Shown one piece after another: positions 5,501-49,598 of a DNA stretch of 64,000 nucleotides. The notes under the pieces are model-generated. The model saw nothing but the letters and a program-made list of their open reading frames with translations. It ran no database searches and was not told where the DNA came from. Numbering within the stretch: the first letter of the stretch is position 1; every line of letters starts with the position of its first letter. The stretch spans positions 1,386,506-1,450,505 of the forward strand of contig OY969767.1 of assembly GCA_963702895.1 (NCBI GenBank). Direction: 5' to 3'. The stretch is from an uncultured Elusimicrobia bacterium. GTDB lineage: Bacteria > Elusimicrobiota > Elusimicrobia > 2-01-FULL-59-12. Position numbers and translations under genes: made by a program.

Positions 5501-5673
5501 TTTTCCCCACTGGGCTCTAGTATACCCCCCGAGGGAGTTTCTGTCAACGGCCCCGGCGCGTGCCAGAGGTGATCACGCGCCACACGGCAGAAAGGCCTCC
5601 CACCGTGGAGGGTGGAAGGCCTTAAGGAAAGTGAAAGCTGCATTCTATACACCGAATTCTGTACGGCAACGGC

Positions 5674-5772
5674 AAACGTCGTAAATGGTAAATGGTGAAG
5701 GAGGAATGGTGAAGAGTTCGATAGAACATAACGATTCACCATTTTCTATTTACTATTTACGCCGTCTGCCGT
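5674..5772. repeat. Palindromic AT-cored repeat, family A copy 1 (arms CGGCAAACGTCGTAAATGGTAAATGGTGAA / TTCACCATTTTCTATTTACTATTTACGCCGTCTGCCG)
   Basis: Imperfect ~100-bp hairpin seen directly in the sequence. Two further copies lie within 600 bp. Confidence 0.7.
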
Positions 5773-5845
5773 CACCGTCGAGCGCCATTCTTCTGGGCGA
5801 CGACCTCGAGTGCGGACGAGCCGGGACCAGCTCTCCTCGAACCCC

Positions 5846-5938
5846 GGGAACGGCAAACGTCGAAAATAGAAAATGGAAAATAGCACTTTCTCATCTCTCT
5901 ATTTTCGATTCTCTATTTTCGCCGTATGCCGTTCCCGG
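5846..5938. repeat. Palindromic repeat, family A copy 2
   Basis: GGGAACGGCAAACGTCGAAAATAGAAAATGG...CTATTTTCGCCGTATGCCGTTCCCGG. Same arm structure as copy 1. Confidence 0.7.
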
Positions 5939-6037
5939 CATCTTGCTCCGGATGGGGTTTGCCTTGCTCCCTTCGTTACCTCAGGGACGGTGAGCTCTTA
6001 CCTCGCCATTTCACCCTTACCCGTCACGACCAACTCA

Positions 6038-6122
6038 GGGTTCAGAGCTCAGAACTCAGAGAGGGCGATGGTTTTATAAGAATCATCCTTATCTCTGAGC
6101 TCTGAGTCCTGAATTCTGAGCT
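6038..6122. repeat. Palindrome built on a CAGAACTCAGA motif
   Basis: CAGAGCTCAGAACTCAGAGAG...CTCTGAGCTCTGAGTCCTGAATTCTGAGC inverted repeat. A related AGCTCAGAACTCAGAAGGCAGAGTTCAGAA lies at 10061-10095. Confidence 0.6.
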
Positions 6123-6164
6123 GGCCGTTCCAGGCGGTGTATTTTCTGTGGCACTTTCCGTTGA

Positions 6165-6266
6165 GAACGGCAAACGTCGTAAATAGTAAATGGTGAATCG
6201 TGAACAGTATTTGCGCATGCTCCTACTCACTATTTTCTATTTACTATTTACGCCGTCTGCCGTTCC
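6165..6266. repeat. Palindromic repeat, family A copy 3
   Basis: GAACGGCAAACGTCGTAAATAGTAAATGGTGAA...TATTTTCTATTTACTATTTACGCCGTCTGCCGTTCC. Confidence 0.7.
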
Positions 6267-6485
6267 CCCCCTGGCTTGCGCCAGGCATCCTGCCCATGGA
6301 GTTCGGACTTTCCTCCCACCTCCGCTCATTCTTGCGCTTCGCGCGGCGATGAGCTACGGTGGGCAAGCCCCCCCTATAAAAAAGGGGCCTGCCCGCCATA
6401 GCTCTGCCGCAGCGCGTTAGCGCTAAGAGCGGGCGGAGGCGGGCGGCGCTCCGAATGCAGCTTTCAAAGAGCGAACAACAAAAGC

Positions 6486-7282: not shown

Positions 7283-8046
7283 TTATGCATAATTCGCCCA
7301 TGAGCATGGTCTTTCTGTTCTGGCTGAGCGCCCTTTATACCCTGGCTCTCTTTAGCGCACAGTTCGCCGAATTTCTTACCGCGGGTCGACTTCACGTTCA
7401 GCTTGCCACAGCCAATGCTCTGTATCTTGCTCTTCTATCAACCTATGTCGGAGGAAAAGAGATCAAACGCTGGACGGTCGGCTTCAAACCCAATGAACAA
7501 GGCGTGTCCACAGAGCAGGGTCAGCGTGCTCCCTTTCGGCTTAAAGGCGAATGGTTTGTGGGGCTTTGGGTTCTTTTTCTGCTCGCCGCCAATCTGGGGT
7601 CGGAGATCTGGCCCGCACGATTTGCCTACCCCAAAGGATTGACCCTCATTGCGTTTGAAGTCCTGGGGTTTTATATCGGCTCCAGCGCCTCCCGCTGGCT
7701 GAACGACCGGATCGAGGAAAGGGCGCATGTGGAGCTTGAGCAACAGCTCGAGGCCGAAAGCGGGAAGGGAAATGCGCGATCCGCATCTTCCGTATCTCCC
7801 GTCACAAGCCCACGCCTCAACCGTAAGCGTCTACGCTACGAGAAAGCGATCCTTGAAGCGGTACACCGCAAAGGAGGCCTGCGGCGCCAAGAGATCGAAG
7901 CGCTTCTTGGACTTTCGCGGGCGGCTTCCTTGCGCATTATCGGCCATCTCATGGAGAAAGGTTTGCTCAAGCGTACCGGCGAGCCGGGCGACCCCGACAC
8001 GTTGTATCAAGCTGATTCAGATCTCCATCCAGCTGCTCGTTTTTAG
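7283..8046 (+). CDS. Hypothetical membrane protein with C-terminal winged-helix/HTH domain
   Basis: Several predicted TM helices are followed by LEAVHRKGGLRRQEIEALLGLSRAASLRIIGHLMEKGLLKR (MarR/ArsR-like wHTH). The start was chosen at the internal MHNSPMSMV. The ORF-track start (7186) overlaps the divergent gene. Confidence 0.45.
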
Positions 8047-8236
8047 CCCAACCTGCTCACTTTTTCAGTTGAAGCTGCTCGTTTTGGAAGGCCAACCTGC
8101 TCACTTTTCGAGGAAGCTGCTCACTTTTTTGAGCTGAAGCTGCTCGTTTTAGAAGTCCAAGCTGCTCGTTTTTCGAGGAAGCTGCTCACTTTTTTGAGCT
8201 GAAGCTGCTCGTTTTCAGAGGGGACCTGCTCACTTC
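8030..8236. repeat. Tandem array, ~10 units of 21-23 bp (consensus GCTGCTC[GA][C]TTTT..GA[GA]GAA)
   Basis: Visible direct repeats beginning in the last codons of the 7283-8046 gene and running to 8236. Confidence 0.8.
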
Positions 8237-8389: not shown

Positions 8390-8464
8390 TGGTGGGCGCT
8401 ACAGGATTCGAACCTGTGACCCCTGTCGTGTGAGGACAGTGCTCTACCGCTGAGCTAAGCACCC
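8390..8464 (-). tRNA. tRNA-Val (anticodon CAC), CCA encoded
   Basis: The reverse complement folds as a canonical cloverleaf: acceptor GGGTGCT/AGCGCCC, D-arm GCTCAGCGGTAGAGC, anticodon stem CTGTC/GACAG with loop CTCACAC, T-arm ACAGGTTCGAATCCTGT, 3' ACCA. Confidence 0.85.
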
Positions 8465-11459: not shown

Positions 11460-12481
11460 CCCCGGACCTCAGCATTCGGAGCCCGACCAAGCAGATGAAA
11501 AGCGTCGGACGTCGAACGTCGGACGGACGTTCCAAGGTCCTCCGTCTGAACAGCCATCACGGAATCCACATTGGCCAGGTCAAAATGCCGCAAAAGGCCG
11601 GTTTCGCCTTCCTTGGCGAGTCCACCCGTCACCGAATCCACAACGATGGTTCGCGTCCAAGGAGGTCCTTGGAGAGAGGAAGTCCCCCCTCGTCCATAGA
11701 ATTGAGAACTGAGCTCACACATTCCATATTCATTAATGCATGCTTCTTCTGGGATGCCCAGGGATACTGTCACTTGCTGCACAAATTCTGGCCTGGTCAC
11801 CTGGCGTTTCTCTGTTTTCATTCCCCCCGTATCCATCAACCGGCTGCCAGGAGGAAGACGAAATATCTTTCCCGTCTTGCTTAGATAATCAAAGAATTTC
11901 AGGAAGCTAATCGTTGTGCCCAAGAGAGCCACCGGCACTCCGGTACTTTCCGACTCGCAAAGTTTCCGGAAGAGTTGTGTCTCGAGGAGAACACCTCGTT
12001 CGATGAAGGTGCCGCTACCGGGTGTGCCAAATTTGCGCTTGACGACCTCCAGCATCCAACTCAAGGAAGAGTGCGGGGCCTCCGCTGGAGCCGGCGCTAA
12101 CACCAGCATGGGCAGGCGCGCCTGGTCCGGCAAGACTTGAGATGAGAAAAAGCTCTCAAGCGAGCTCTCGTAGTAGCGAAGTGTCCGAAGATAGTGTTGG
12201 CTCCGGGACGATGAGGTCGTGCCGCTCGAACGAAACACCGCCGCCGCTTGGGCCACAGGAAAGGTGGCCAGCTCAGAGGACTTAAAGGCGGACACGGGAA
12301 CCGCGGGAATTTCCTGCCAGGTCTGGATCCGCACCGGACTCAGACCCTGCGCGCGGCAAAAGGCCTGATAGGGTTTGTTGCGCGCAAACTGATAGGCAAA
12401 AAGTTCAAGGGCGACAGACTCAAAATCACCCGTGCCCGTGCGCAAGAATTGCTCGATACGCTGTCCAAGGCTTTCGGTCAT
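11426..12481 (-). CDS. luxE: Acyl-protein synthetase, LuxE family
   Basis: 351-aa ORF resembling LuxE (adenylate-forming long-chain-fatty-acid ligase). ATGA overlap with the aminotransferase stop at 12478-12481. Confidence 0.7.
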   Translation of the reverse strand: MTESLGQRIEQFLRTGTGDFESVALELFAYQFARNKPYQAFCRAQGLSPVRIQTWQEIPAVPVSAFKSSELATFPVAQAAAVFRSSGTTSSSRSQHYLRTLRYYESSLESFFSSQVLPDQARLPMLVLAPAPAEAPHSSLSWMLEVVKRKFGTPGSGTFIERGVLLETQLFRKLCESESTGVPVALLGTTISFLKFFDYLSKTGKIFRLPPGSRLMDTGGMKTEKRQVTRPEFVQQVTVSLGIPEEACINEYGMCELSSQFYGRGGTSSLQGPPWTRTIVVDSVTGGLAKEGETGLLRHFDLANVDSVMAVQTEDLGTSVRRSTSDAFHLLGRAPNAEVRGCSLSAEAYRT

Positions 12482-13953
12482 ACGGTTTTTATGCCGTCAC
12501 CCCGGCGGAAGCCGGCCCTCCACACATCCGGCGGGCCGTCCGCCCTGCCGTGTGGCGGACGGGGTCCATCATTGTCGGCAAAGAATGGATAGATCCCCCG
12601 CTTACTACCGCGGGGGATGACGGCGAACAGTACCTCACAGAGAATATGGGTTGCCAATTTTAAATCATTTCCTGAAATGGTCAGCGGCGGCGTGAGGGTG
12701 AGCACATTGCGCCGGACTCCTCCGGACAAGACGATGAGCCGCTTCTTGAGCGATTCGGTGACCACCCGCGCGGCAAGCCTGGGTGCCGGCGTGAGGGTTT
12801 TCTTGTCTTGGACCAATTCGATGCCGATCATAAGCCCCAGACCGCGCACCTCTCCCACACAGGGATGATCGGCCAAGGCGTCCTGGAGTTCCCTGAGCCA
12901 CGGTTTGCCCACACGCGAGGCCCGCTCGGCCAGCTTCTTCGCTCGAAGTTCCTTCAGCGTCGCAAGCGCCATCGCACATCCCAGGGGATGGCCCAGAAAC
13001 GTGCTCGTATGGATGGCCTCGCCATCCGACGGCGGCCACGCGTCCATCGCGGCCCGTGTGCCCAGGCAGGCCGAAAGAGGAAAACCATTCGTCAGCGCTT
13101 TACCGACGCAGACAAGGTCCGGGTCGACGCCAAAATGATCCACCGCCAAAAACCGGCCGGTCCGGCCGGTGCCAGAAAAGATCTCGTCGTCGATCAAGAG
13201 CAGCTGATAGCGCCTCGCGAGCGCTCGCAAACCCCGTAGAAACACGGGGCCGGCGACGCGCACGCCGCCCCGGCCTTGCACGGGCTCCACGATAATCGCT
13301 CCAAAGGGCCCGGCGGGATGTTTCCCTTGCTTGAGGAGGCGCTCTAAGTTCTCAAGGCACCGCTCGGCAGAGTTCCCGCGGAGCTCATCGGGGAATGGCG
13401 AAAGCGCGCACCAGGCGGGCAGTTGATCTTGGAACGGATTTCGAAAATCTTCTCGATCGCACAACCCGAGGGTCCCGTAGCTCAGCCCATGGTAGGCCCC
13501 ATCGAAAGCGATCACACCTTTCTTGCCTGTCGCCAGGCGCGCCGTTTTGAGGGCAGACTCCACCGCTTCCGCGCCGGAGCTCGAAAGGATGGCGAGCGGA
13601 AATCGTCGCGAAGTGGCCACGCTCAAGGCCTCAAGGAGCTGAACTTTGACCGCATTGGGATGCACGTCGCCCATGCCATGCCACATCTTTTGGCTTTGTT
13701 TTACGATAGCGCGCTGGACGCAAGGTGCCCCGTGACCCAACCCGGCCACACCGAAGGCGCTCGTGAGGTCGAGATACCGAGTGCCGTCCACGTCCCTCAC
13801 CCAGGAGCCTGCGGCGGACTCCCAGAACACGGGAAAGTCATCCGAGAGGTAGGTGATATTCCTGGACTCGACCCGGCGCAGCCGCCGCGCAAGCTGTCGG
13901 GATTTCGGACCCGGAAGGCGACTAGGGTGAGCGAGCGAAGTGAGTCGATTCAT
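12478..13953 (-). CDS. Class III (PLP-dependent) aminotransferase with MITE-encoded C-terminal extension
   Basis: Aminotransferase class-III motifs (…GAEAVESALKTARLATGKKGVIAFDGAYHG…, PLP-lysine region). The last ~45 codons (…PRGSKRGIYPFFADNDGPRPPHGRADGPPDVWRAGFRRGDGIKTV) are read through repeat element B1. Confidence 0.85.
   Translation of the reverse strand: MNRLTSLAHPSRLPGPKSRQLARRLRRVESRNITYLSDDFPVFWESAAGSWVRDVDGTRYLDLTSAFGVAGLGHGAPCVQRAIVKQSQKMWHGMGDVHPNAVKVQLLEALSVATSRRFPLAILSSSGAEAVESALKTARLATGKKGVIAFDGAYHGLSYGTLGLCDREDFRNPFQDQLPAWCALSPFPDELRGNSAERCLENLERLLKQGKHPAGPFGAIIVEPVQGRGGVRVAGPVFLRGLRALARRYQLLLIDDEIFSGTGRTGRFLAVDHFGVDPDLVCVGKALTNGFPLSACLGTRAAMDAWPPSDGEAIHTSTFLGHPLGCAMALATLKELRAKKLAERASRVGKPWLRELQDALADHPCVGEVRGLGLMIGIELVQDKKTLTPAPRLAARVVTESLKKRLIVLSGGVRRNVLTLTPPLTISGNDLKLATHILCEVLFAVIPRGSKRGIYPFFADNDGPRPPHGRADGPPDVWRAGFRRGDGIKTV
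12493..12623. mobile_element. MITE-like palindromic element, family B copy 1 (termini GCCGTCACCCC…GGGGATGACGG)
   Basis: ~130 bp. Near-identical to 41401-41537 (shared core GCCGGCCCTCCACACATCCGGCGGGCCGTCCGCCCTGCCGTGTGGCGGACGGGGTC). Internal hairpins. Inserted in-frame in the 3' end of the aminotransferase gene. Confidence 0.75.
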
Positions 13954-13979
13954 CGACGGTATTTTATCTTAAAAAACAT

Positions 13980-14012
13980 ACGGGGACGTTGGTAACTTAC
14001 CAACGTCCCCGT
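13980..14012. terminator. Perfect 16-bp-arm hairpin (ACGGGGACGTTGGTAA/TTACCAACGTCCCCGT) followed on the minus strand by T6
   Basis: Seen in sequence, with the A-rich run 13971-13976 on plus. Candidate minus-strand intrinsic terminator insulating the aminotransferase operon. Abuts the IS target duplication. Confidence 0.45.
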
Positions 14013-14020
14013 GTGTCCTG

Positions 14021-15405
14021 GAGTTACCATCAAAAGTGCTGGAAATAGGTTCTGAGGCAAGGAAGGATTTGCCTTAGGAATAGATAACGGCGTACCCTTT
14101 CGTTGAACCAAACAAACCTGTCCGTTCAAGCGGACAATAAACGAAAAGGAGACGCCGTTATGAAGACCATTGTAAACGTGAAAGGCTGCGAACACAAAGA
14201 GAGCATGCTGGATTATCTGGCCCGAGAGGGAGCGCGCAAAATGCTGGTGGAAGCCCTGGAGGAAGAAGTGACGATGTATCTGGAGCGGCGGCGCTATGAG
14301 CGGGCGAAGAGCCTGGAGAAAGGCTATCGCAACGGAACCCGGGAGCGGAAGGTGACAGTTTTGGGAGCAGGTTTAAAGCTCTCGGTGCCGCAAGTCGACG
14401 GGGGCGAGTTTGAGTCGAGCATCTTGCGTCCGTACCAGCGGCGAACCGAGGGTGTCGAGGAGTTATTCCGGCGGCTGTACCTGGAGGGGCTCTCGAGCCG
14501 GGACTTTGAGCCGGCGATGCGAGCACTGATCGGGGATGGAGCCACCTTATCAGCCAGCACGATCCTGCGTTTATCGGCGAAGTTTCAATCGGACCTGGCC
14601 ACCTTCAGCCGCCGGGACTTATCCGAAACGCGTTACGCCTATGTCTGGGCGGACGGCGTGTACTTGAAGGCCGGGCTGGAGAAAGAGAATACGGCGCTTT
14701 TAGTGTTGGTTGGCGTGAATGCCGATGGGAAGAAAGAGCTGATTGCTCTGATGGAAGGCTACCGGGAGAGCCGGGATTCCTGGAAGGAAATCTGGCGAGG
14801 GGTGGCGGAGCGTGGAATGCCCGCTCCGCTCTTGGTTATCGGCGATGGGATGGGTGGGCTCTGGGAGGCGGTGGCGGAGGTCTATCCGACCGCCAAAGAT
14901 CAACGGTGCTGGAAGCACAAGATGCGCAACGTCGTGGATAAAGTGCCGAAGGCCAAGCAAGAGGAGGTGCTCAACCGTCTGCGCGTAGCGTATCAGGCGG
15001 AGCGTCGAGAAGACGCGGAGAATCACCTGGCCTTGTTAGCCGAGGACCTGGAGATTCGCTACCCGAAGGCGGCGGCTTGTATCCGGAAGGACCATGACGC
15101 CTTGCTGCGCTACTTCGACTTTCCGAAGGAGCACTGGGTGCATTTAAAGACGAGCAATCCGATCGAGTCGGTCTTCGCGGGGGTCCGATTGCGAACTCGC
15201 GTTGTGCGGCGGTTTCAGAAATCTCGCACGGGAGTAGCGTTCGTCTACAAAATCATTGAACGCCTGGCGCAATTCTGGAAGCCGATTGAGAAGCCGGAAT
15301 TGGTGATGGGATTATTCGTCGAACGAGAGAAGCTGGAGGTAGCGGCCTAAGAGACTTTCGACCAAAGGGGCGCCGATCGATTTCCATCACATTTGACTAA
15401 AGCTC
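14021..15405 (+). mobile_element. IS256-family insertion sequence (1385 bp) flanked by 9-bp direct repeats TGTGTCCTG (14012-14020 and 15406-15414)
   Basis: Imperfect terminal inverted repeats GAGTTACCATCAAAAGTGCTGG (left) and rc GAGCTTTAGTCAAATGTGATGG (right), 15/22 identical. Single transposase ORF inside. Identical 9-bp flanks. Confidence 0.7.
14103..15350 (+). CDS. IS256-family (mutator-type) transposase
   Basis: 415-aa ORF (likely start MKTIVNV at 14160) with conserved IS256 transposase regions (…YLERRRYER…, DDE-containing core …VWADGVYLK…ALMEGYRES…). Confidence 0.85.
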   Translation: MNQTNLSVQADNKRKGDAVMKTIVNVKGCEHKESMLDYLAREGARKMLVEALEEEVTMYLERRRYERAKSLEKGYRNGTRERKVTVLGAGLKLSVPQVDGGEFESSILRPYQRRTEGVEELFRRLYLEGLSSRDFEPAMRALIGDGATLSASTILRLSAKFQSDLATFSRRDLSETRYAYVWADGVYLKAGLEKENTALLVLVGVNADGKKELIALMEGYRESRDSWKEIWRGVAERGMPAPLLVIGDGMGGLWEAVAEVYPTAKDQRCWKHKMRNVVDKVPKAKQEEVLNRLRVAYQAERREDAENHLALLAEDLEIRYPKAAACIRKDHDALLRYFDFPKEHWVHLKTSNPIESVFAGVRLRTRVVRRFQKSRTGVAFVYKIIERLAQFWKPIEKPELVMGLFVEREKLEVAA

Positions 15406-39800: not shown

Positions 39801-41371
39801 GTCTTCGGATAAGCGGCAAGCACCCTTTCAATGATATCTCGATCTCTGGCCCTACCATTGAAAAACCAACCCCCTACTCGGCGGCCGTGGTGGATTTCTT
39901 AAACAGCGACCCGGCGGCCTTTCAATCCAGCGTGCAGCTGGAGCAGCTCGACATCACCGACCATGATTCGCTGGACCCCGTTTTAGACGGTGTCGACCTG
40001 ATCATGGTCAACCACGTCATGGAATATTTGCACCCGGCGGACGTAAAGCCCTTCTTGCAACACCTGTACCAGAAGGCCCCGCAAGCCTGGTTGGCCATGG
40101 AAAATGAATACAGTACTCCCGCCGAAGCTCACCACCGCCAATGGATACCTTATCAGCCGACGCATTTGCCGGGCTTTCGCCCAACGGATTCAGGAAGCAG
40201 CTCACTTCCCGGCGAGAACACACCCCGGTCAGCGGCTGTGGTCGGCATCTTCGCCAGCTGGCTCGCGCTCAGTCAGGCCGCATCCTCCGCTCACCTCCCC
40301 AGTAGGTTGGAATCCCTGCTTTCATTCTTCTATTCGATATCGCCGCTCTTTCCCTGGCTCATGCTCGCCGCGACAGCGGTCTGGCTGGCGGGCACCTTTG
40401 TCGCGCTGAGAACTCTTTGGAGGCACCCCTCTCGGGTGCCGAGCATAAGACAGGGCGGTACGGCTTCGCCCAGCCCGGCCAGAGCGCTCACTTTTCGGTA
40501 CTATTCCGAACTGACCCCCGGACAAAAAGCTGATGTAACGCTAGCTTCATTAATCAGAAGGTTAGGAGCAAGACGTGAGGTGCACGTCTACGATACGAAA
40601 CCATTGGGCAGCCGGTGGGGCCAATTGCCGATCCTCACCCGGTGGAGCCTGCGCCGTTTCACGCGTAACCTGACCCCTGATCCGACAACACTCAGACTCG
40701 ATGCTCTCGTCGCCTATCGTGGAGACATTCCCATGGGTGTTTACGCGTTCATCGATCTCGGTCCAGATCGTCAAATTGTTATGGACAACGGCATCTACAT
40801 GGACGCCGACCAGAGGCAGAACGGATACGGTGGAAAACTCACGAAGGAACTCCTCAGCAGGCTGGCAGAGCGCGGGTACAGAATGTTCGTTTTGGGACCG
40901 CCTTTGGGAACGGCTGAAGCGGAGGGGCTCCGTCGGTGGCTGAGCGCTGCCCCAGGCGTTGAAACGCGGGGCAGAACAACCATCGTCCATCTCGCTAACT
41001 ACCGAACAAACACCGCCAATTCCCAAGCCGCCGGCAAACCCAAAGGCAAAACAAACGATTCCGCCCCGGAAGCGGAGCCCGCTGACGCGCCGCGCGGCAT
41101 AAAGCTTCGCAGTTCCGCGCTGGCCGGCGCTCTCGCCAGCGCGATCGCGCTCAGCCAGGCGCCGTTTGCCCCCCAACTGCCGGATTGGCTTTCTCCCCTC
41201 TTCAGCACGGCGAGTTCGCTGGCGCCGCTCGTTCCCTGGGTGGGGATGGCCGCCGTGATCGGTTGGCTTTTACGGCCAGCTCTGACTCGCATGCTGTTGA
41301 AGGCCCTTCCCCGCCTGCGCGGCAGTCGTTCATCCCGAGCCATCCATCATCACCTTCGAGCCGCGGCCTGA
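30851..41371 (+). CDS. Giant mosaic protein 3 (3506 aa): leader, NagB/6-phosphogluconolactonase-like domain, 2x SAM-MTase, transglutaminase-like, LysM-like, GNAT-like, many hairpin modules
   Basis: Uninterrupted ORF. Leader MPKSLIRIVALILVPCMLLDPSSAFA. NagB-like PTGSTP…NMDEYY…GHVAFNE (≈31384-31760). MTase LELGAGLGAI (≈33038-33400). TGase-like GDCDVL…SHAVMVI…EFDPS (≈35012-35190). LysM-like YRVQPGQSFNDIARLIF (≈35516-35570). MTase VVDLGVSTGE (≈39640-40090). GNAT-like …QRQNGYGGKLTKELL… (≈40690-40900). Confidence 0.8.
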   Translation: MPKSLIRIVALILVPCMLLDPSSAFAELARPAAWRAPFPAGVSLASPQATHAALRLDSFPFGIQALVPPSWLSRPISWIQRASELARQASRNRFQVRWTSLAGSPFSFPVLGTDERPIRPVQFSVSQNEIGGGQDGTGQIVTTPSGSRFQVFDTPQTMAAAQAGEIAEIIHANDAAGRITILILPTGSTPIPVYHELVRLYQARQLSFRNVHTFNMDEYYPGPQAPCAWAQHPQSYRRFMDELLFSKVDIPRANIHFLNGQAADPAAEAARYEQEFRDLAPNGADLELGGVGSRGHVAFNEAVVHLTDDFLQRLTSKNREALGLSNDFALEVTAGHELAALAMILQGHWNFREGETFVRWLRARIKTTGRITEESLQKLAERLRRQRVTIGWNPDSPDAKDIQDFVNQASARFGFPIELADLRKLDDSQTHLRELALSTVVDNSVHFAEPADIPTQALTMGLGTLRHSQRTRILASTPNKIPPLEQVAAGPVSEQVPVTDVLRHPDTRFLVTQAAIPPTVRTALARTSGLVLNSQPETRNPKAESGTPAARDTKLYTHPIAVMALAWMASSHFYSWDPAGTGLLLLLTIAPLMAWQGRIFRGKSGMNTFRRLDALLRHLRGLSYARCRELLATGLDRFVPPRRKHRQREFPAIALPAAAPGNPFQLRPPTAVELAFPSRYESAVHAKFVGNDPYDDRTRAIVQAHATAAYVDLMREIFKRTGGTLRGVSFLELGAGLGAIVDVLRTRAGVDAQGIEVRREFVQFARDHGVPLIQGTLLEVPLELAGKTFQITFSRQLLDAIETTDRATEGPMPSQVTHEEELRVLATIAALTAPGGWSIHQTYSSNPIPFTDEELTQAGFQIVSMNPRRTMMVLRRLSDPPPSSPVRRPEAAEETIKPEGKKGPSLYTHPIALMALAWMASSHFYGWDPAGILPLLLLLVPLMAWGPGRYRQWMTSLSGRGPRYKAKQWERKLDEDLRRLRGKGSKAGTLPFELYPGADAGARKPASPRPARPATQLPEAVPVSDPSVSLDLAPAAAVSLAPAAATAVSPPSPIADSPPPSTDGSPTRRPADPPTRRVAALDVDPAAPATSPFRPWRWIAAGIAVAAVVAALHFGPTTFRQFRDGSSTPRPSSSASQDYVYEPGPASETTHDRVRTMMGPYYGMDLQGHRAESGEPRADAGAPSQPPALNPLENIADIQLSGHAANEMLMMAFANTMEDGGVLSHAGRIDFVPSDKLTKERTKVTLILPALRQGQAMRMPIPLNRRVDPLSISDPRLWVDAQGWLTAREDTPPLTVTFDWITTLENGSFRANFPVTPWMEREFQDIPPEVRRDLDRALGLDEHGRASVLAGVVEKYLGYNQQQRVQLRRGTWNRFIGEVLETEGRFKGDCDVLATVGWIWARYLGLDAVMAAGRNNRGGGSRSGTNMSHAVMVIRIGGKWLEFDPSKWAPPVASESLAPDQPSADGKRLDAGPMPTPLKPSPQFVATFIPNPELFPPPRTGPPASAKPTAERPVPPGVGQESPKTEPGAKVGPAEKPASAKKPASTETPAKRPSTYRVQPGQSFNDIARLIFTDEKYPYPAALDLIVDNINHTIGGDPDRLMAGVDLIVRPTSAYSSPVAGMDWEWGLHRKYGRAWYERRHALLQQALTRESQRPSPYTSEYQSELRARAGARWRSIEFDILAINDILNWIEQRFGVRFQRVDLMQAMAQTMERSQIILKLTSTGRSKSGTTAAPKQTADGESAKRRSGEPADLPLGHSTKTSPDDRLIAPKSITPLMAGLLQAPLWWWGLSHLLGGPQTPLLTQAAFLALPAIPLGAALALFAAGVVVAGMAVLGRKVLKQTRPERIEIQLTPMDRPYQLDLVKSGGSHSRGDLIRLDLEEMRLEAHKTGVPGRMAVRRVYLEELGHAVDARRFVREGRPLSGFVRPNSPLQTYWDHHNPKDPEHDMKELVAGLRHILFAQTPFEAERALIKLSQVANDPTDSHYWGGRFALERILQRIDAGRGERVDDLTNYLPRLIYGSGAFPDLPTLRLLAKELCIENLRDYPPDGDGLPALSADGSRIDVPDETQQALATVWRAFETYTGKSLADDAVPTPEHVRHSQAARSGLPGFDRTGHSIHDPGLAQGRKMVGMVIAGLLQAPLWWWGLSHLLGGPQTPLLTQAAFLTMPAIPLGDALISFAVGAAWIVVAGMAVFGSGAPAPGQEGVSGPVSPGPSSNTAAAVRRSFEAQARVLAGIPTVTEFEANFPGTIRRVDLGPGYSNSLRAGEVPKIDFTRRIQGRVYQPPPASENDWPKWLDLYVEKDAQALVVRLMRAGFRPDYSNAYGDGLKGVWWTRTSHHTDTVGSNATNTFFTPLTEEDYLAPDQGEHPGETPNDPGAPVTPTEPPLNWIEKNDAALEQLSPIDRQLVDAILQGALHGDAELLAQYPEKVYIDPIEVGRSDEGRTIFLKLETSILVEGRYLTHLRFKGARPHKGRYGQGNQVAYLGRRGHVERPVTVDQEGRLTVFAGQLDPMGGMRRIGAANEYALMQSENSQGAYRTDVPIGWGIFPGFAFENEPLGWAIAGMEGPDVRINGRRQNQLILRSRTNDPYGMIELSQEQSQHLARLIGESICAYHQKGRYHRYPHFGNIGVAYDTVTRSIRSVVLRDLETSVRKDSLSGSPKEIENQIIAWRFRDVIRLIYQFSFRPRPNDPLIGALLRGYFPEGTLRNDDLQALLVTICRPNFLDDYASLFYDDETQDLSNLIDTLDIQSHPNYQHLWNAIRQSMASQPATPEGNDGSATQEHPGRIDPTGLRRVLPAIALLAALPWTYGFTSISGSPGSGAAIPLGAALALFAAGIAVLISGNSPRKRKILTKAASHKAGRQKPVSGDAPGPSRHVYPDPVVMEKSRYDLPKSLKSWSWLARNKDQRQWLRDVFLPRLLATQNLRAPGQIKVVDLGVSTGEVLARTYYEIFQHLIENTLKGTWKARMVGVDRDATVLAEARLRISGKHPFNDISISGPTIEKPTPYSAAVVDFLNSDPAAFQSSVQLEQLDITDHDSLDPVLDGVDLIMVNHVMEYLHPADVKPFLQHLYQKAPQAWLAMENEYSTPAEAHHRQWIPYQPTHLPGFRPTDSGSSSLPGENTPRSAAVVGIFASWLALSQAASSAHLPSRLESLLSFFYSISPLFPWLMLAATAVWLAGTFVALRTLWRHPSRVPSIRQGGTASPSPARALTFRYYSELTPGQKADVTLASLIRRLGARREVHVYDTKPLGSRWGQLPILTRWSLRRFTRNLTPDPTTLRLDALVAYRGDIPMGVYAFIDLGPDRQIVMDNGIYMDADQRQNGYGGKLTKELLSRLAERGYRMFVLGPPLGTAEAEGLRRWLSAAPGVETRGRTTIVHLANYRTNTANSQAAGKPKGKTNDSAPEAEPADAPRGIKLRSSALAGALASAIALSQAPFAPQLPDWLSPLFSTASSLAPLVPWVGMAAVIGWLLRPALTRMLLKALPRLRGSRSSRAIHHHLRAAA

Positions 41372-41400: not shown

Positions 41401-41537
41401 GCCGTCACCCCGGCGGATTGTTAGCCGGCCCTCCACACATCCGGCGGGCCGTCCGCCCTGCCGTGTGGCGGACGGGGTCTATCACCGTCGTAAACGGAAT
41501 GATGGATCCCCCCCTTACGACCGGGGGGGATGACGGT
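41401..41537. mobile_element. MITE-like element family B copy 2 (intergenic)
   Basis: GCCGTCACCCCGGCGG…GCCGGCCCTCCACACATCCGGCGGGCCGTCCGCCCTGCCGTGTGGCGGACGGGGTCTATCACC…GGGGGGGATGACGG. >90% identical to copy 1 over the core. Confidence 0.75.
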
Positions 41538-42758: not shown

Positions 42759-42835
42759 CCGTCACCCCGGCGAACGCCGGGGTCTATCGAATATCGAAGG
42801 AAAATAATGGATCCCGGCTTTCGCCGGGATGACGT
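42759..42835. mobile_element. MITE-like element family B copy 3 (short form lacking central hairpin)
   Basis: GCCGTCACCCCGGCGAACGCCGGGGTCTATCGAA…AATGGATCCCGGCTTTCGCCGGGATGACG. Same termini as copies 1, 2 and 4. Intergenic between the cupin gene and rpoD. Confidence 0.65.
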
Positions 42836-42856: not shown

Positions 42857-44599
<1,743 letters not shown>

Positions 44600-47879: not shown

Positions 47880-48232
47880 TGGATGGTCTCCTGGAGTTCA
47901 CGTTGGGTCGAAGCAAAGGGAGGCCCCACACGCTTATCGCGCCGTGCCAAGCGATAAATCACGAAGGCGATCACAAAATAGAGGGCCCCAAAGATCAGCG
48001 CCGAAAGACTTAAAGGCAGGCCAAGCTTCATCAGACCGCCAATGAGCGCGACCTGCAGCACGATAAAGCCGGTCAGCACAAGGACCAAGATACAGGCGGC
48101 GCAAACGAGGCGCTTCGTGACCCGCTCCGTTTCGTAACGCAATTCGAGCGATGCCAGTTCCACATGATCGGAAAGCTGTCCCGCGACCTCTTTCCAGATG
48201 GTCTGGCGCTCGGGTGGACCGTTCTCAGTCAT
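47855..48232 (-). CDS. Phage-holin-family-3/DUF1469-like small membrane protein
   Basis: 125 aa: an amphipathic N-terminus, then two TM helices (…LVCAACILVLVLTGFIVLQVALIGG…LSALIFGALYFVIAFVIY…) and a charged tail. This architecture is typical of the family. Confidence 0.5.
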   Translation of the reverse strand: MTENGPPERQTIWKEVAGQLSDHVELASLELRYETERVTKRLVCAACILVLVLTGFIVLQVALIGGLMKLGLPLSLSALIFGALYFVIAFVIYRLARRDKRVGPPFASTQRELQETIHWIQKILS

Positions 48233-49598
48233 AGATCAAATCTATCCCTTCAGGAGGGTAAATGCAATCGATAAATTCGCCTTCGCGCGCGCCCTCGGGC
48301 GCGCGGGCCCGGACATAGCGCTCCGTATAGCCCGTCCCATCGGATTCTACAAGAAGCCGAACGCTTCGACCCACAAACATCTCGGCATAGCGGCGACGCA
48401 GCGTTCGGTCCAAGGCCACCATCGTCCGCGTTCTCTGCGCTTTGACTCGCGGATCCACATGACCCGACAGACGCTGGGCGGGCGTCCCGGGCCTCACCGA
48501 ATAGCGGAACGCATGGATGCGGCTCAACCCCTCTTCCTCGAGGAGCTGCAGGGTGCGCTGAAATTCTGTTTCCCCCTCCCCCGCAAAACCGACGATGATG
48601 TCCGCTGAGAGCGCCACCTCCGGTATGCGGGACTTGATCCAGCGCACCCGGTCCCGGTAATCCTGAGAACTGTACCAACGTCCCATGCGCTTGAGCACGG
48701 CATCATCGCCGGATTGAAGCGGGATATGAAAGAAGGGGCAAAGTTTGGGGTGCCGCGCCGCGAGCATCACGAGCTCGTCCGGAATCTCGGTGACCTCAAG
48801 GGAGGACAGACGTATCCTGAAATCTCCAGGCAACTCAAGCAAAGCTTTAAGAAGTCTCTCAAATGTCCATTGTTGTTGGAGAAATTTTACGTCATTCCGG
48901 CGAAAGCCGGAATCCATCATGATGGACCCCGGGTCTCCACAAGTCCGGCGACCCGGCCCGCCGGGTGTTTGGAGGGCCGGCGTCCGCCGGGGTGACGAGA
49001 TGGAATCATCAGTTCCACCATATTGATAGCGACCCAATCGAACTCCTGTCAGGACAATCTCACGAAAGCCTTTGTCAATCAAATTGCTGGCCTCTGCGCG
49101 GATTCGCTCTGGCGATCGACAAATGAGATTCGGCCTCACGGAGGGGATGATGCAGTACGTACACTTCGCATCACAACCGTCCTGGATCTTGATATAGGCG
49201 CGCGTTCGATCAGCAAGGGCCGTCACGCCGCTCCTGGCGGCCTCCTGGACACAGGCCGTGGGCACGCCCAGGGCTATGGCGATCATGGGCTTCTCATGGT
49301 TCCCATAGACTTCCACCCGGGGGGAGATCTGGCGCAGCTCTTCTGCCGCGCGCTCCGCGTAGCATCCGGTCACCACCACACGAGAGCCCTTTAGTTCACG
49401 CAAGAGTTTGCGGATGAGCTGCCGGCAGGAGCGATCGGCGCCCGAGGTGACGGTGCAGGAGTTCACGATCGCAATGTCGGCGGGCTGGCTCCCGGGGACG
49501 ACACGGTATCCACCCAGGCGAAACTGCTCCCGGAGTTCTTCGGTTTCATACTGGTTGACCTTACACCCGAAGGTATGAAAAGCGATGGAGGGTGTCAT
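48225..49598 (-). CDS. Radical-SAM methylthiotransferase (MiaB/MtaB/RimO family) carrying an in-frame MITE insertion
   Basis: MTTase N-domain (FGCKVNQYETE), radical-SAM CxxxCxxC (DGCDAKCTYCIIP), C-terminal TRAM-like region. ~40 inserted residues (…GGTDDSISSPRRTPALQTPGGPGRRTCGDPGSIMMDSGFRRNDVKF…) coincide with element B4. Confidence 0.85.
   Translation of the reverse strand: MTPSIAFHTFGCKVNQYETEELREQFRLGGYRVVPGSQPADIAIVNSCTVTSGADRSCRQLIRKLLRELKGSRVVVTGCYAERAAEELRQISPRVEVYGNHEKPMIAIALGVPTACVQEAARSGVTALADRTRAYIKIQDGCDAKCTYCIIPSVRPNLICRSPERIRAEASNLIDKGFREIVLTGVRLGRYQYGGTDDSISSPRRTPALQTPGGPGRRTCGDPGSIMMDSGFRRNDVKFLQQQWTFERLLKALLELPGDFRIRLSSLEVTEIPDELVMLAARHPKLCPFFHIPLQSGDDAVLKRMGRWYSSQDYRDRVRWIKSRIPEVALSADIIVGFAGEGETEFQRTLQLLEEEGLSRIHAFRYSVRPGTPAQRLSGHVDPRVKAQRTRTMVALDRTLRRRYAEMFVGRSVRLLVESDGTGYTERYVRARAPEGAREGEFIDCIYPPEGIDLIYD
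48889..48997. mobile_element. MITE-like element family B copy 4 (reverse orientation), in-frame inside the methylthiotransferase gene
   Basis: Its rc reads CGTCACCCCGGCGGACGCCGGCCCTCCAAACACCCGGCGGGCC…GGGGTCCATCATGATGGATTCCGGCTTTCGCCGGAATGACG. Same termini and core as copies 1 and 2. Length is compatible with an in-frame insertion. Confidence 0.7.

Follow-up and report, generated by a model that had tools for sequence, protein, structure and literature searches.

Inverted dimers of CGTC-tagged palindromic repeats, probably REPIN-like mobile DNA, in frame within MtaB and an aminotransferase of an Elusimicrobia bacterium

Two superfamilies of repetitive extragenic palindromic (REP) sequences have been defined, tagged GTAG or CGTC (Di Nocera, De Gregorio & Rocco 2013, BMC Genomics 14:522, PMC3733652). 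In the text of that survey, a CGTC repeat comprises an unpaired CGTC (or TGTC/CCTC), a stem of 8-9 bp that begins with an A-T and a T-A pair, a loop of 4-5 nt, with exceptions of other length noted, and a 3-nt tail that is mostly CCA. Such repeats are described there as predominantly inverted dimers with short spacers, found preferentially just 3' of open reading frames (ORFs), with a minority of copies intragenic and the dimers encoding 20-30 residues. The same text equates CGTC-1 with dRS3 of Neisseria and with the Rickettsia palindromic element (RPE) RPE-6, and CGTC-4 with RPE-4, and it lists Proteobacteria, Chlorobi, Bacteroidetes, Spirochaetes and Thermotogae as host phyla. Here we describe four palindromic repeats in 64,000 nt of DNA from an uncultured Elusimicrobia bacterium (contig OY969767.1; this whole stretch is hereafter the window), two of which are read by the genes for a tRNA methylthiotransferase (mtaB) and a class-III aminotransferase. 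We consider it highly likely that they are inverted dimers of CGTC-tagged REPs, of the CGTC-1 type, and that those within genes are true in-frame insertions. Bounded from CGTCA to TGACG, the copies are as follows.

12495-12622, plus strand, 128 nt: copy 1 (c1), long-form dimer, read by the aminotransferase gene on the minus strand
41403-41535, plus strand, 133 nt: copy 2 (c2), long-form dimer, intergenic
42760-42834, plus strand, 75 nt: copy 3 (c3), short-form dimer, intergenic
48890-48997, minus strand (reverse orientation), 108 nt or 36 codons: copy 4 (c4), long form, in frame in MtaB

An earlier note on this DNA, made from its letters, had reported four related copies with the termini CCGTCAYCC / GGRATGACGG. 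All four are present, each no more than 1-2 nt from the coordinates given there, and are joined by long alignments; the termini recur, with an outermost C/G that varies (T at both ends of c4 and at one end of c3). Identity between c1 and c2 is 88-89% across 113-114 nt, including 47 nt at 100%; c1 and c4 are 93% identical across 44 nt and 79% across 70 nt; and complementarity between the end units of c3 and c4 reaches 91% across 32 nt. This similarity is far above chance level. Counts of the terminus are weak evidence when taken alone, a 14-mer yielding 8 matches in the window against 2.1 expected (up to two mismatches), which is only mildly above chance, and the case for relatedness therefore rests on the long alignments. 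All four copies also fold far more stably than shuffled controls (z of -3.8 to -7.5, minimum free energies of -49 to -79 kcal/mol), and each doublet folds as one long hairpin with paired termini. No direct repeats indicative of target-site duplication flank c1-c4. The elements have a G+C content of 59-70%, the window one of 57.6%, and an Rfam scan of the window returned no family for them, detecting only RNase P RNA and two tRNAs.

Each unit opens with an unpaired CGTC tag, continues with a stem of 8-9 bp around a short loop, and ends in a CCA or CTA tail; in a dimer, two units face each other with the tags outermost, across a spacer of 6 nt (c4) or 21 nt (c1-c3). The following units represent the variants of this plan.

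48890-48916, plus strand: intact unit of c4, CGTC-ATTCCGGC-GAAA-GCCGGAAT-CCA, with no mismatches in its 8-bp stem and a 4-nt loop
48917-48922: spacer of c4, 6 nt between the composite and intact units
48923-48997, minus strand: composite unit of c4, a stem ACCCCGG...CCGGGGT around a mini-hairpin and an imperfect inner palindrome of ~45 nt
12590-12622, minus strand: right unit of c1, second subtype, CGTC-ATCCCCCG-CGGTAGTAAG-CGGGGGAT-CTA
42760-42786, plus strand, and 42808-42834, minus strand: the two units of c3, plain form, with a 21-nt spacer

The tag CGTC opens all eight units of the four copies, and TGTC variants occur in two of the loci from elsewhere to which we refer by L numbers (L128, L139). 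Stems measure 8-9 bp in all intact units and begin with an A-T pair in every case, while the tail is CCA in five units and CTA in three. Loops of 4 nt (GAAA, GAAC, GGAA or GGAC) are found in both units of c3, in the intact unit of c4 and in the mini-hairpins of c1 and c4. The right units of c1 and c2 constitute a second subtype, CGTC-ATCCCCCG(C)-loop of 8-10 nt-(G)CGGGGGAT, with relatives in L126 and L127, where genes orthologous to those of the window MtaB and aminotransferase are found; L127 also holds a single, undimerised unit. Three of the four copies (c1, c2 and c4) contain the composite unit, whose stem halves ACCCCGG / CCGGGGT are parted by a 5-bp mini-hairpin and the ~45-nt imperfect palindrome. 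The possibility that this inner palindrome is an element in its own right, raised by L138, which seemed to lack CGTCA ends, was dropped, as that locus has a degenerate composite unit.

Compared with CGTC-1 as described in the text of the 2013 survey (PMC3733652), the window elements share the CGTC tag, the 8-bp stem starting with A-T, in some units the GNRA-like 4-nt loop, and the CCA tail, as well as the arrangement in inverted dimers with short spacers, the sites 3' of ORFs and the occasional in-frame dimers encoding 20-40 residues. They differ in the apparent host, Elusimicrobiota, which lies outside the five listed phyla (named homologues of window proteins are labelled Elusimicrobia or Elusimicrobiota), in some loops of 8-10 nt, and in the composite unit with its ~45-nt inner palindrome inside the stem, which is absent from the description in that text. 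Our literature search found no paper linking Elusimicrobia with REPs. The earlier note saw an echo of the Rickettsia elements; the relationship appears closer than that, given that the text of the survey places RPE-6 and RPE-4 in the CGTC superfamily, an assignment on which the link depends (PMC3733652). With RPE-1 to RPE-10 (Ogata et al. 2000, as covered in PMC10969869 and PMC3733652) the window elements have in common that palindromes lie in frame in unrelated housekeeping genes and supply fold-compatible peptides: those seen here or in related loci occupy the MtaB loop, the C-terminal tail of the aminotransferase, an AddB-like nuclease, an RND pump, an EVE domain and a linker of PolA. As those two sources describe it, RPE-1 is longer (~150 bp) and AT-rich and has an obligate intracellular alphaproteobacterium as host, whereas the window host is of a free-living type with a 58% GC genome and the peptides are rich in Pro, Gly and Arg. 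The third described system, that of REPINs and their REP-associated tyrosine transposases (RAYTs; Bertels & Rainey 2011, PMC3116915), likewise features two inverted REPs forming one long hairpin, no target duplication and many near-identical copies, and the REPIN seed of Neisseria is the dRS3/CGTC-1 sequence (bioRxiv 10.1101/2021.07.10.451892). It differs in that the cognate RAYT gene, its defining partner, which as a rule has the same REPs at its flanks, is not seen in the 64-kb window. REP dimers decorating proteins are a phenomenon already catalogued; what is new is the host phylum, the composite unit, and an MtaB loop filled by at least three palindrome families.

Of the two coding copies, c4 lies in mtaB.

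48225-49598, minus strand: mtaB, tRNA t6A37 methylthiotransferase, 457 aa (Pfam UPF0004 and Radical_SAM; homologue names)

The gene lies in the order TerC-MtaB-holin-HIT, as at orthologue loci, and its product retains all six Fe-S cysteines (C12, C48, C79, C142, C146 and C149), the catalytic ones being invariant in the alignment. Within it, c4 encodes (S)SPRRTPALQTPGGPGRRTCGDPGSIMMDSGFRRND(V), the sole stop-free frame on that strand, with 6 Arg in 36 residues. The nearest MtaB orthologues are 408-416 aa long and 71-77% identical outside the insert, and they have a 4-residue link where the window protein has 52 residues; the eight nearest neighbours of the window MtaB in a neighbour-joining tree all have this 4-residue loop, and in L002 the empty site can be seen at the DNA level. 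Alignment of MtaB to the solved chains of RimO and MiaB breaks between query residues 186/197 and 244, leaving ~46 residues unmatched. In an AlphaFold model built from 96 sequences (mean predicted local distance difference test score, pLDDT, of 89), only residues ~195-243 are unstructured, with 207-236 scoring below 50, and this segment falls between a strand at 180-184 and a helix at 246-254. Since the segment lies between strand and helix and the Pfam Radical_SAM match (136-353) spans it, c4 sits in a loop inside the radical-SAM core, and not between the core and the C-terminal domain, where it had originally been placed. By alignment, then, and as the earlier note proposed, c4 reads as a true in-frame insertion of 36 codons into a radical-SAM methylthiotransferase whose closest orthologues lack the segment, and the inserted peptide occupies a loop predicted to be disordered.

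This loop appears to have been filled more than once. Our census covered the 73 nearest MtaB orthologues with a recognisable loop, of which 16 carry large inserts at the same place, as do a few distant ones, while the orthologue alignment revealed no comparable inserts at other internal sites of the protein. CGTC dimers in the loop were confirmed at the DNA level in L001, where the dimer is 65 nt long and in another register, in L125, whose MtaB is only 41% identical and has its own CGTC dimer with different stems, and in L126. A second palindrome family, GCCTCACCC...CCCTCTCCC...GGGAGAGGG...GGGTGAGGC, occupies the loop in L004, with a nested version in L143, and a third, GAGCCTGTCGAA...TTCGACAGGCTC, in L142. 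We take the loop to have been filled independently by CGTC dimers and other palindrome families, at least three families in all. Carriers are scattered on the tree and the insertion points are shifted by several codons among orthologues, lying 4-9 codons from a conserved Tyr. Such shifted positions and differing registers point to repeated insertion rather than to native sequence. The earlier note held that orthologues sharing the same segment would mark it as native; the nearest lack it, and some distant ones have related or unrelated palindromes in the loop, at shifted positions and in other registers. The loop has the appearance of a regional hotspot that owes most to the tolerance of the protein, with a mechanistic preference for insertion there as a possible alternative.

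The second coding copy, c1, lies at the end of the aminotransferase gene.

12478-13953, minus strand: class-III aminotransferase, 491 aa, with its Pfam domain ending at residue 441

The stop codon of this gene overlaps the start of luxE as ATGA (12478-12481), and luxC follows. Orthologues, the nearest of which are without the c1 segment, stop 5-17 residues past an EVL motif, and several end in ...VTV*, ...VSV* or EVLYATV* (the last in L127); in the window protein, c1 is followed by GIKTV* and the ATGA overlap. Together with one flanking base, the 128 nt of c1 make up 43 codons that end five codons ahead of the stop. Cutting 129 nt restores ...EVLFGIKTV*, while cutting 128 nt would fuse the aminotransferase to luxE. 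As the end that remains after removal of 129 nt is native-like, c1 is an in-frame insertion and not a replacement of the last codons, as had been suggested; the preserved coupling to luxE was correctly noted. For both genes, then, the closest orthologues have an empty site. Other palindrome-like inserts were observed elsewhere in the enzyme in the orthologues P0149, P0135, P0128 and P0141 (...PLAAALSLKGRGEF...PPQGGEGG...; LRERVQGEG...), and from such inserts at other sites in other lineages, in-frame repeat insertion seems general in this clade. Between the start of the aminotransferase gene and an ORF of the IS256 family there is a near-perfect hairpin (13976-14016; 20-nt arms, 95% complementary, 1-nt loop).

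In both coding copies the frame in use is an open one. The lengths of c3 and c4 are divisible by three, each having exactly one stop-free frame per strand, and c2 has a sole open frame on the plus strand. The open register reads S-P-R-R ... G-F-R-R-x-D from both sides because the element is palindromic, and one other frame is closed by the TGA of the terminal TGACG. The related peptides quoted in the earlier note are all present, and they result from reading the terminal unit in one register, starting at either end of the palindrome, and not in different frames. The simplest account of the in-frame state is survivorship, insertions that shift the frame, bear stops or strike a structured part of an essential protein having been lost.

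The intergenic copies are situated as the published family would lead one to expect of sites 3' of ORFs: c2 begins 32 nt past the stop of a 3506-aa ORF (which ends at 41371), between convergent genes, and c3 lies 22 nt past the 3' end of rpoD (42857), upstream of a cupin gene. The right unit of c3 (42811-42830, minus strand) followed by CCATTATTTT forms a terminator-like pattern 27 nt downstream of rpoD; a scan for terminators and promoters around c2 and c3 gave no more sites than shuffled sequences did. The rpoD gene is itself split (43337-43460, minus strand) by a one-base frameshift in a run of six G, one frame ending in LIQEGGSD* and the next frame carrying on, which is probably a homopolymer assembly error.

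Beyond the window, a scan of species-representative genomes with CGTCAYYCCGGCGNNNGCCGG matched at least 120 loci, and the figures derived from it hold among the matches listed, which do not include the genome of the window. The 21-nt terminal motif occurs in Alpha-, Beta-, Gamma- and Deltaproteobacteria, Chloroflexota, Actinomycetota, a Microgenomates genome and others, and the element is consequently not special to the high-GC lineage suggested at the outset. Across 158 units, covariation with the pairing partner is seen at two degenerate (Y) stem positions, 103 units being fully complementary against 43 expected if the positions were independent; 110 of the 158 have a CCA tail, and the loops are GAAA, GAAG or GCAG. 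Given this covariation and constancy, the matches are not due to chance. Among them are thirty inverted dimers of 65-165 nt with unrelated spacers, the flanks of which display a preference of the form Y|CGTCA...TGACG|R only and no direct repeat. In L006 (4320-4424), a 105-nt CGTC dimer lies in frame in an alphaproteobacterial DNA polymerase I, within the linker between the 5'-nuclease and 3'-5' exonuclease domains; genes of this class are already noted in the text of the 2013 survey (PMC3733652). The majority of long ORFs that span dimers in high-GC genomes (L028, L048, L104 and others) are apparently antisense and spurious, and we left them uncounted; L128 has no Pfam match.

The core of the composite unit was recovered from 14 metagenome contigs in a metagenome scan. 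Alignment of 16 composite copies shows that the outer stem persists on the two sides of the inner part, three of its pairs having changed in a compensatory way, and that the inner hairpins are almost invariant. The unit is in frame in real genes on at least 3 of the 14 contigs, namely in an AddB-like PD-(D/E)XK nuclease (L136), an RND efflux pump (L137) and an EVE-domain protein (L138) whose Pfam match runs across the insert. Taking these with two of the three long window copies, the long-form subfamily is inside genes unusually often, on small numbers and with metagenome contigs as a biased sample. An exhaustive HMMER search with the 37-aa inserted peptide gave four matches, too few to gauge its frequency in real proteins. 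Two of these are short ORFs that overlie additional long-form copies, and another corresponds to short dimers clustered in tandem. No candidates came from a word-indexed search of proteins with this peptide. In L133, a long-form copy lies just upstream of a polysaccharide deacetylase gene that has a second, different palindrome-like insert inside, and in L135 and L131 a gene may take its start codon from the terminal ...ATGACG of the element.

Our overall explanation, to which we assign a probability of roughly 0.8, is that these are CGTC REP dimers, REPIN-like mobile DNA that survives in tolerant coding sites. The dimers would behave as non-autonomous mobile DNA and would usually land just downstream of an ORF, as c2 and c3 may have done. 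The route of their mobilisation we infer from the REPIN architecture and from Neisseria, where the seed ATTCCCGCGCAGGCGGGAATC (dRS3) is linked to a Group 2 RAYT, a frameshift in which goes with decay of the repeats (bioRxiv 10.1101/2021.07.10.451892): a HUH tyrosine transposase of the RAYT type, its gene lying in some other part of the genome, may copy the dimers in the form of single-stranded hairpins and leave the target unduplicated, a proposal to which we would give slightly less than even odds. Copies landing in genes would survive only where their length is a multiple of three, where a stop-free register is read and where the site tolerates a floppy peptide rich in Pro, Gly and Arg. These circumstances appear to obtain both in the strand/helix loop of MtaB (c4) and in the tail of the aminotransferase (c1), where the gene's own final codons and its ATGA junction with luxE are still in frame.

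The term used in the earlier note, miniature inverted-repeat transposable element (MITE), would strictly imply an internally deleted derivative of a DDE-type insertion sequence (IS), moved via its terminal inverted repeats and leaving a target-site duplication. Small size (75-133 nt), inverted termini of ~27 nt, several dispersed copies and the want of any coding capacity of their own would suit such an origin, and an ORF for a transposase of the IS256 family (Mutator-type) is found 150 nt away from the aminotransferase gene; Correia, ERIC, Nezha and other bacterial MITEs (PMC10969869) are similarly small and non-coding with inverted ends, and are sometimes fused in frame to host ORFs. MITEs, however, have target-site duplications and a parent IS, neither of which is seen for the window elements. 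The flanks of the four window copies and of the 30 dimers among the listed matches from other genomes bear no direct repeat, and the sole transposase of the window (IS256 family, 14103-15350) is without CGTCA-type ends. Each supposed terminal repeat is moreover self-complementary, with compensatory changes in its stem, and units occur singly too, while spacers are unrelated between taxa. We thus regard a classical MITE as improbable; without a target duplication or an IS with matching ends in the window the term is only loosely right, apt for a dispersed, repeated palindromic element. That the segments are native, lineage-specific coding sequence, or an artefact of assembly, has in its favour uninterrupted ORFs and an assembly with at least one indel error. 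A sequence that occurs four times in 64 kb, twice outside genes, that is missing from close orthologues, and whose type recurs in independent assemblies both at the same loop and on 14 metagenome contigs, is neither, and the option is negligible.

The loop of MtaB invites two further readings. A single ancient insertion in an Elusimicrobia ancestor, followed by turnover through nested insertions and gene conversion with other copies in the genome as donors, and by many precise losses, would make the window copy an inherited one. It could explain why the window, L126 and L125 all have the first base of the CGTC tag at codon position 2, why several inserts end in ...(N/D)D(G/V) in the same register, and why one subclade (P0012, P0013, P0015, P0018 and P0019) is rich in inserts. 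We nevertheless find it unlikely, as the loop is at its minimum of 4 residues in all eight proteins closest to that of the window, positions vary by 4-9 codons from the conserved Tyr with L001 in another register, at least three unrelated palindrome families occupy the loop, the 41%-identical MtaB of L125 has its own dimer with different stems, and c4 is closer to c1 (93% over 44 nt) than to the insert of any orthologue. Alternatively, the inserts may be functional additions under positive selection, either as an Arg-rich loop contacting RNA or as a hairpin that regulates the junction of the aminotransferase and luxE. Six Arg in 36 residues, beside the barrel of a tRNA-binding enzyme, and repeated occupation of the loop would accord with the former; REPs are known to affect mRNA stability, according to the text of the survey (PMC3733652), and a terminator-like unit with a T-rich tail follows rpoD at c3. 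Yet the peptides are wholly different between the families found in the loop, most MtaB orthologues are without any insert, the inserted segment is predicted to be disordered, terminator-like sites are no more numerous than in shuffled sequences, and the same DNA occurs in unrelated proteins and between genes. Selected function is accordingly possible but unsupported, and in our estimation a poor prospect.

Several observations weigh against the explanation that we prefer, that of mobile CGTC dimers persisting where proteins tolerate them. With respect to family membership, the second stem pair is T-A in four units and C-G in four (ACCCCGGC/GCCGGGGT), so that the published feature is present in half, and loops exceed the published 4-5 nt in the right units of c1 and c2 (8-10 nt) and in the left unit of c2 (9 nt). 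As to mobility, the text of the 2013 survey associated no transposase with CGTC repeats (PMC3733652), and a crude scan for HUH and Y-x-x-N-P motifs found no RAYT-like ORF in the window, which is ~2% of a 2.7-Mb contig, or in ~0.9 Mb of fetched loci, a weak negative; recent movement is suggested by the similarity of the copies only. In MtaB, ~12 residues flanking c4 (GGTDDSI..., ...KFLQQ) match neither the element nor the orthologues, and tolerance by itself may not account for how often this one loop is hit. Lastly, since the assembly contains at least one homopolymer frameshift, in rpoD, arguments that depend on a single base of reading frame are at some risk.

A bolder extension may be entertained, which we think doubtful. 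The Elusimicrobia clade could represent a second 'Rickettsia-like' case, in which several unrelated palindrome families lie in coding genes at high frequency; the MtaB loop could be a true landing pad, mechanistically favoured or with its Arg-rich peptides co-opted by a tRNA-binding enzyme; and the composite unit, a three-way junction, could be a new REP architecture that propagates independently.

The window contains further repeats. The RNase P RNA gene (5742-6383, minus strand; Rfam RF00010, 123 bits) is 642 nt long where the model has 367 nt, with inserts of ~30, 99, 95 and 106 nt, and a hairpin repeat with arms like ACGGCAAACGTCGTAAATAGTAAATGGTGAA is present in three copies inside or beside it (repeats at 5668-6265); a palindromic repeat family seems to have colonised this structural RNA gene too. 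Clustered direct repeats of 22-65 nt (AGCTGCTCGTTTT-type) lie at 8031-8215, near a tRNA gene (8393-8464). Three consecutive giant ORFs (15436-41371, plus strand; 2343, 2426 and 3506 aa) contain internal repeats of 50-171 nt (families D1, D2, D4 and D6).

In-frame colonisation of housekeeping genes by REPs is, on this evidence, not peculiar to Rickettsia and is found also in a bacterium of free-living type from a poorly studied phylum. Such inserts inflate protein lengths and create spurious 'hypothetical' ORFs (peptides of the VIPAKAGI... and ...GFRRNDV kind), and they can mislead the alignment and annotation of metagenome-assembled genomes. The loop of MtaB, empty in most relatives and filled at least several separate times, offers a natural series in which to ask whether such sites are targeted, tolerated or useful.

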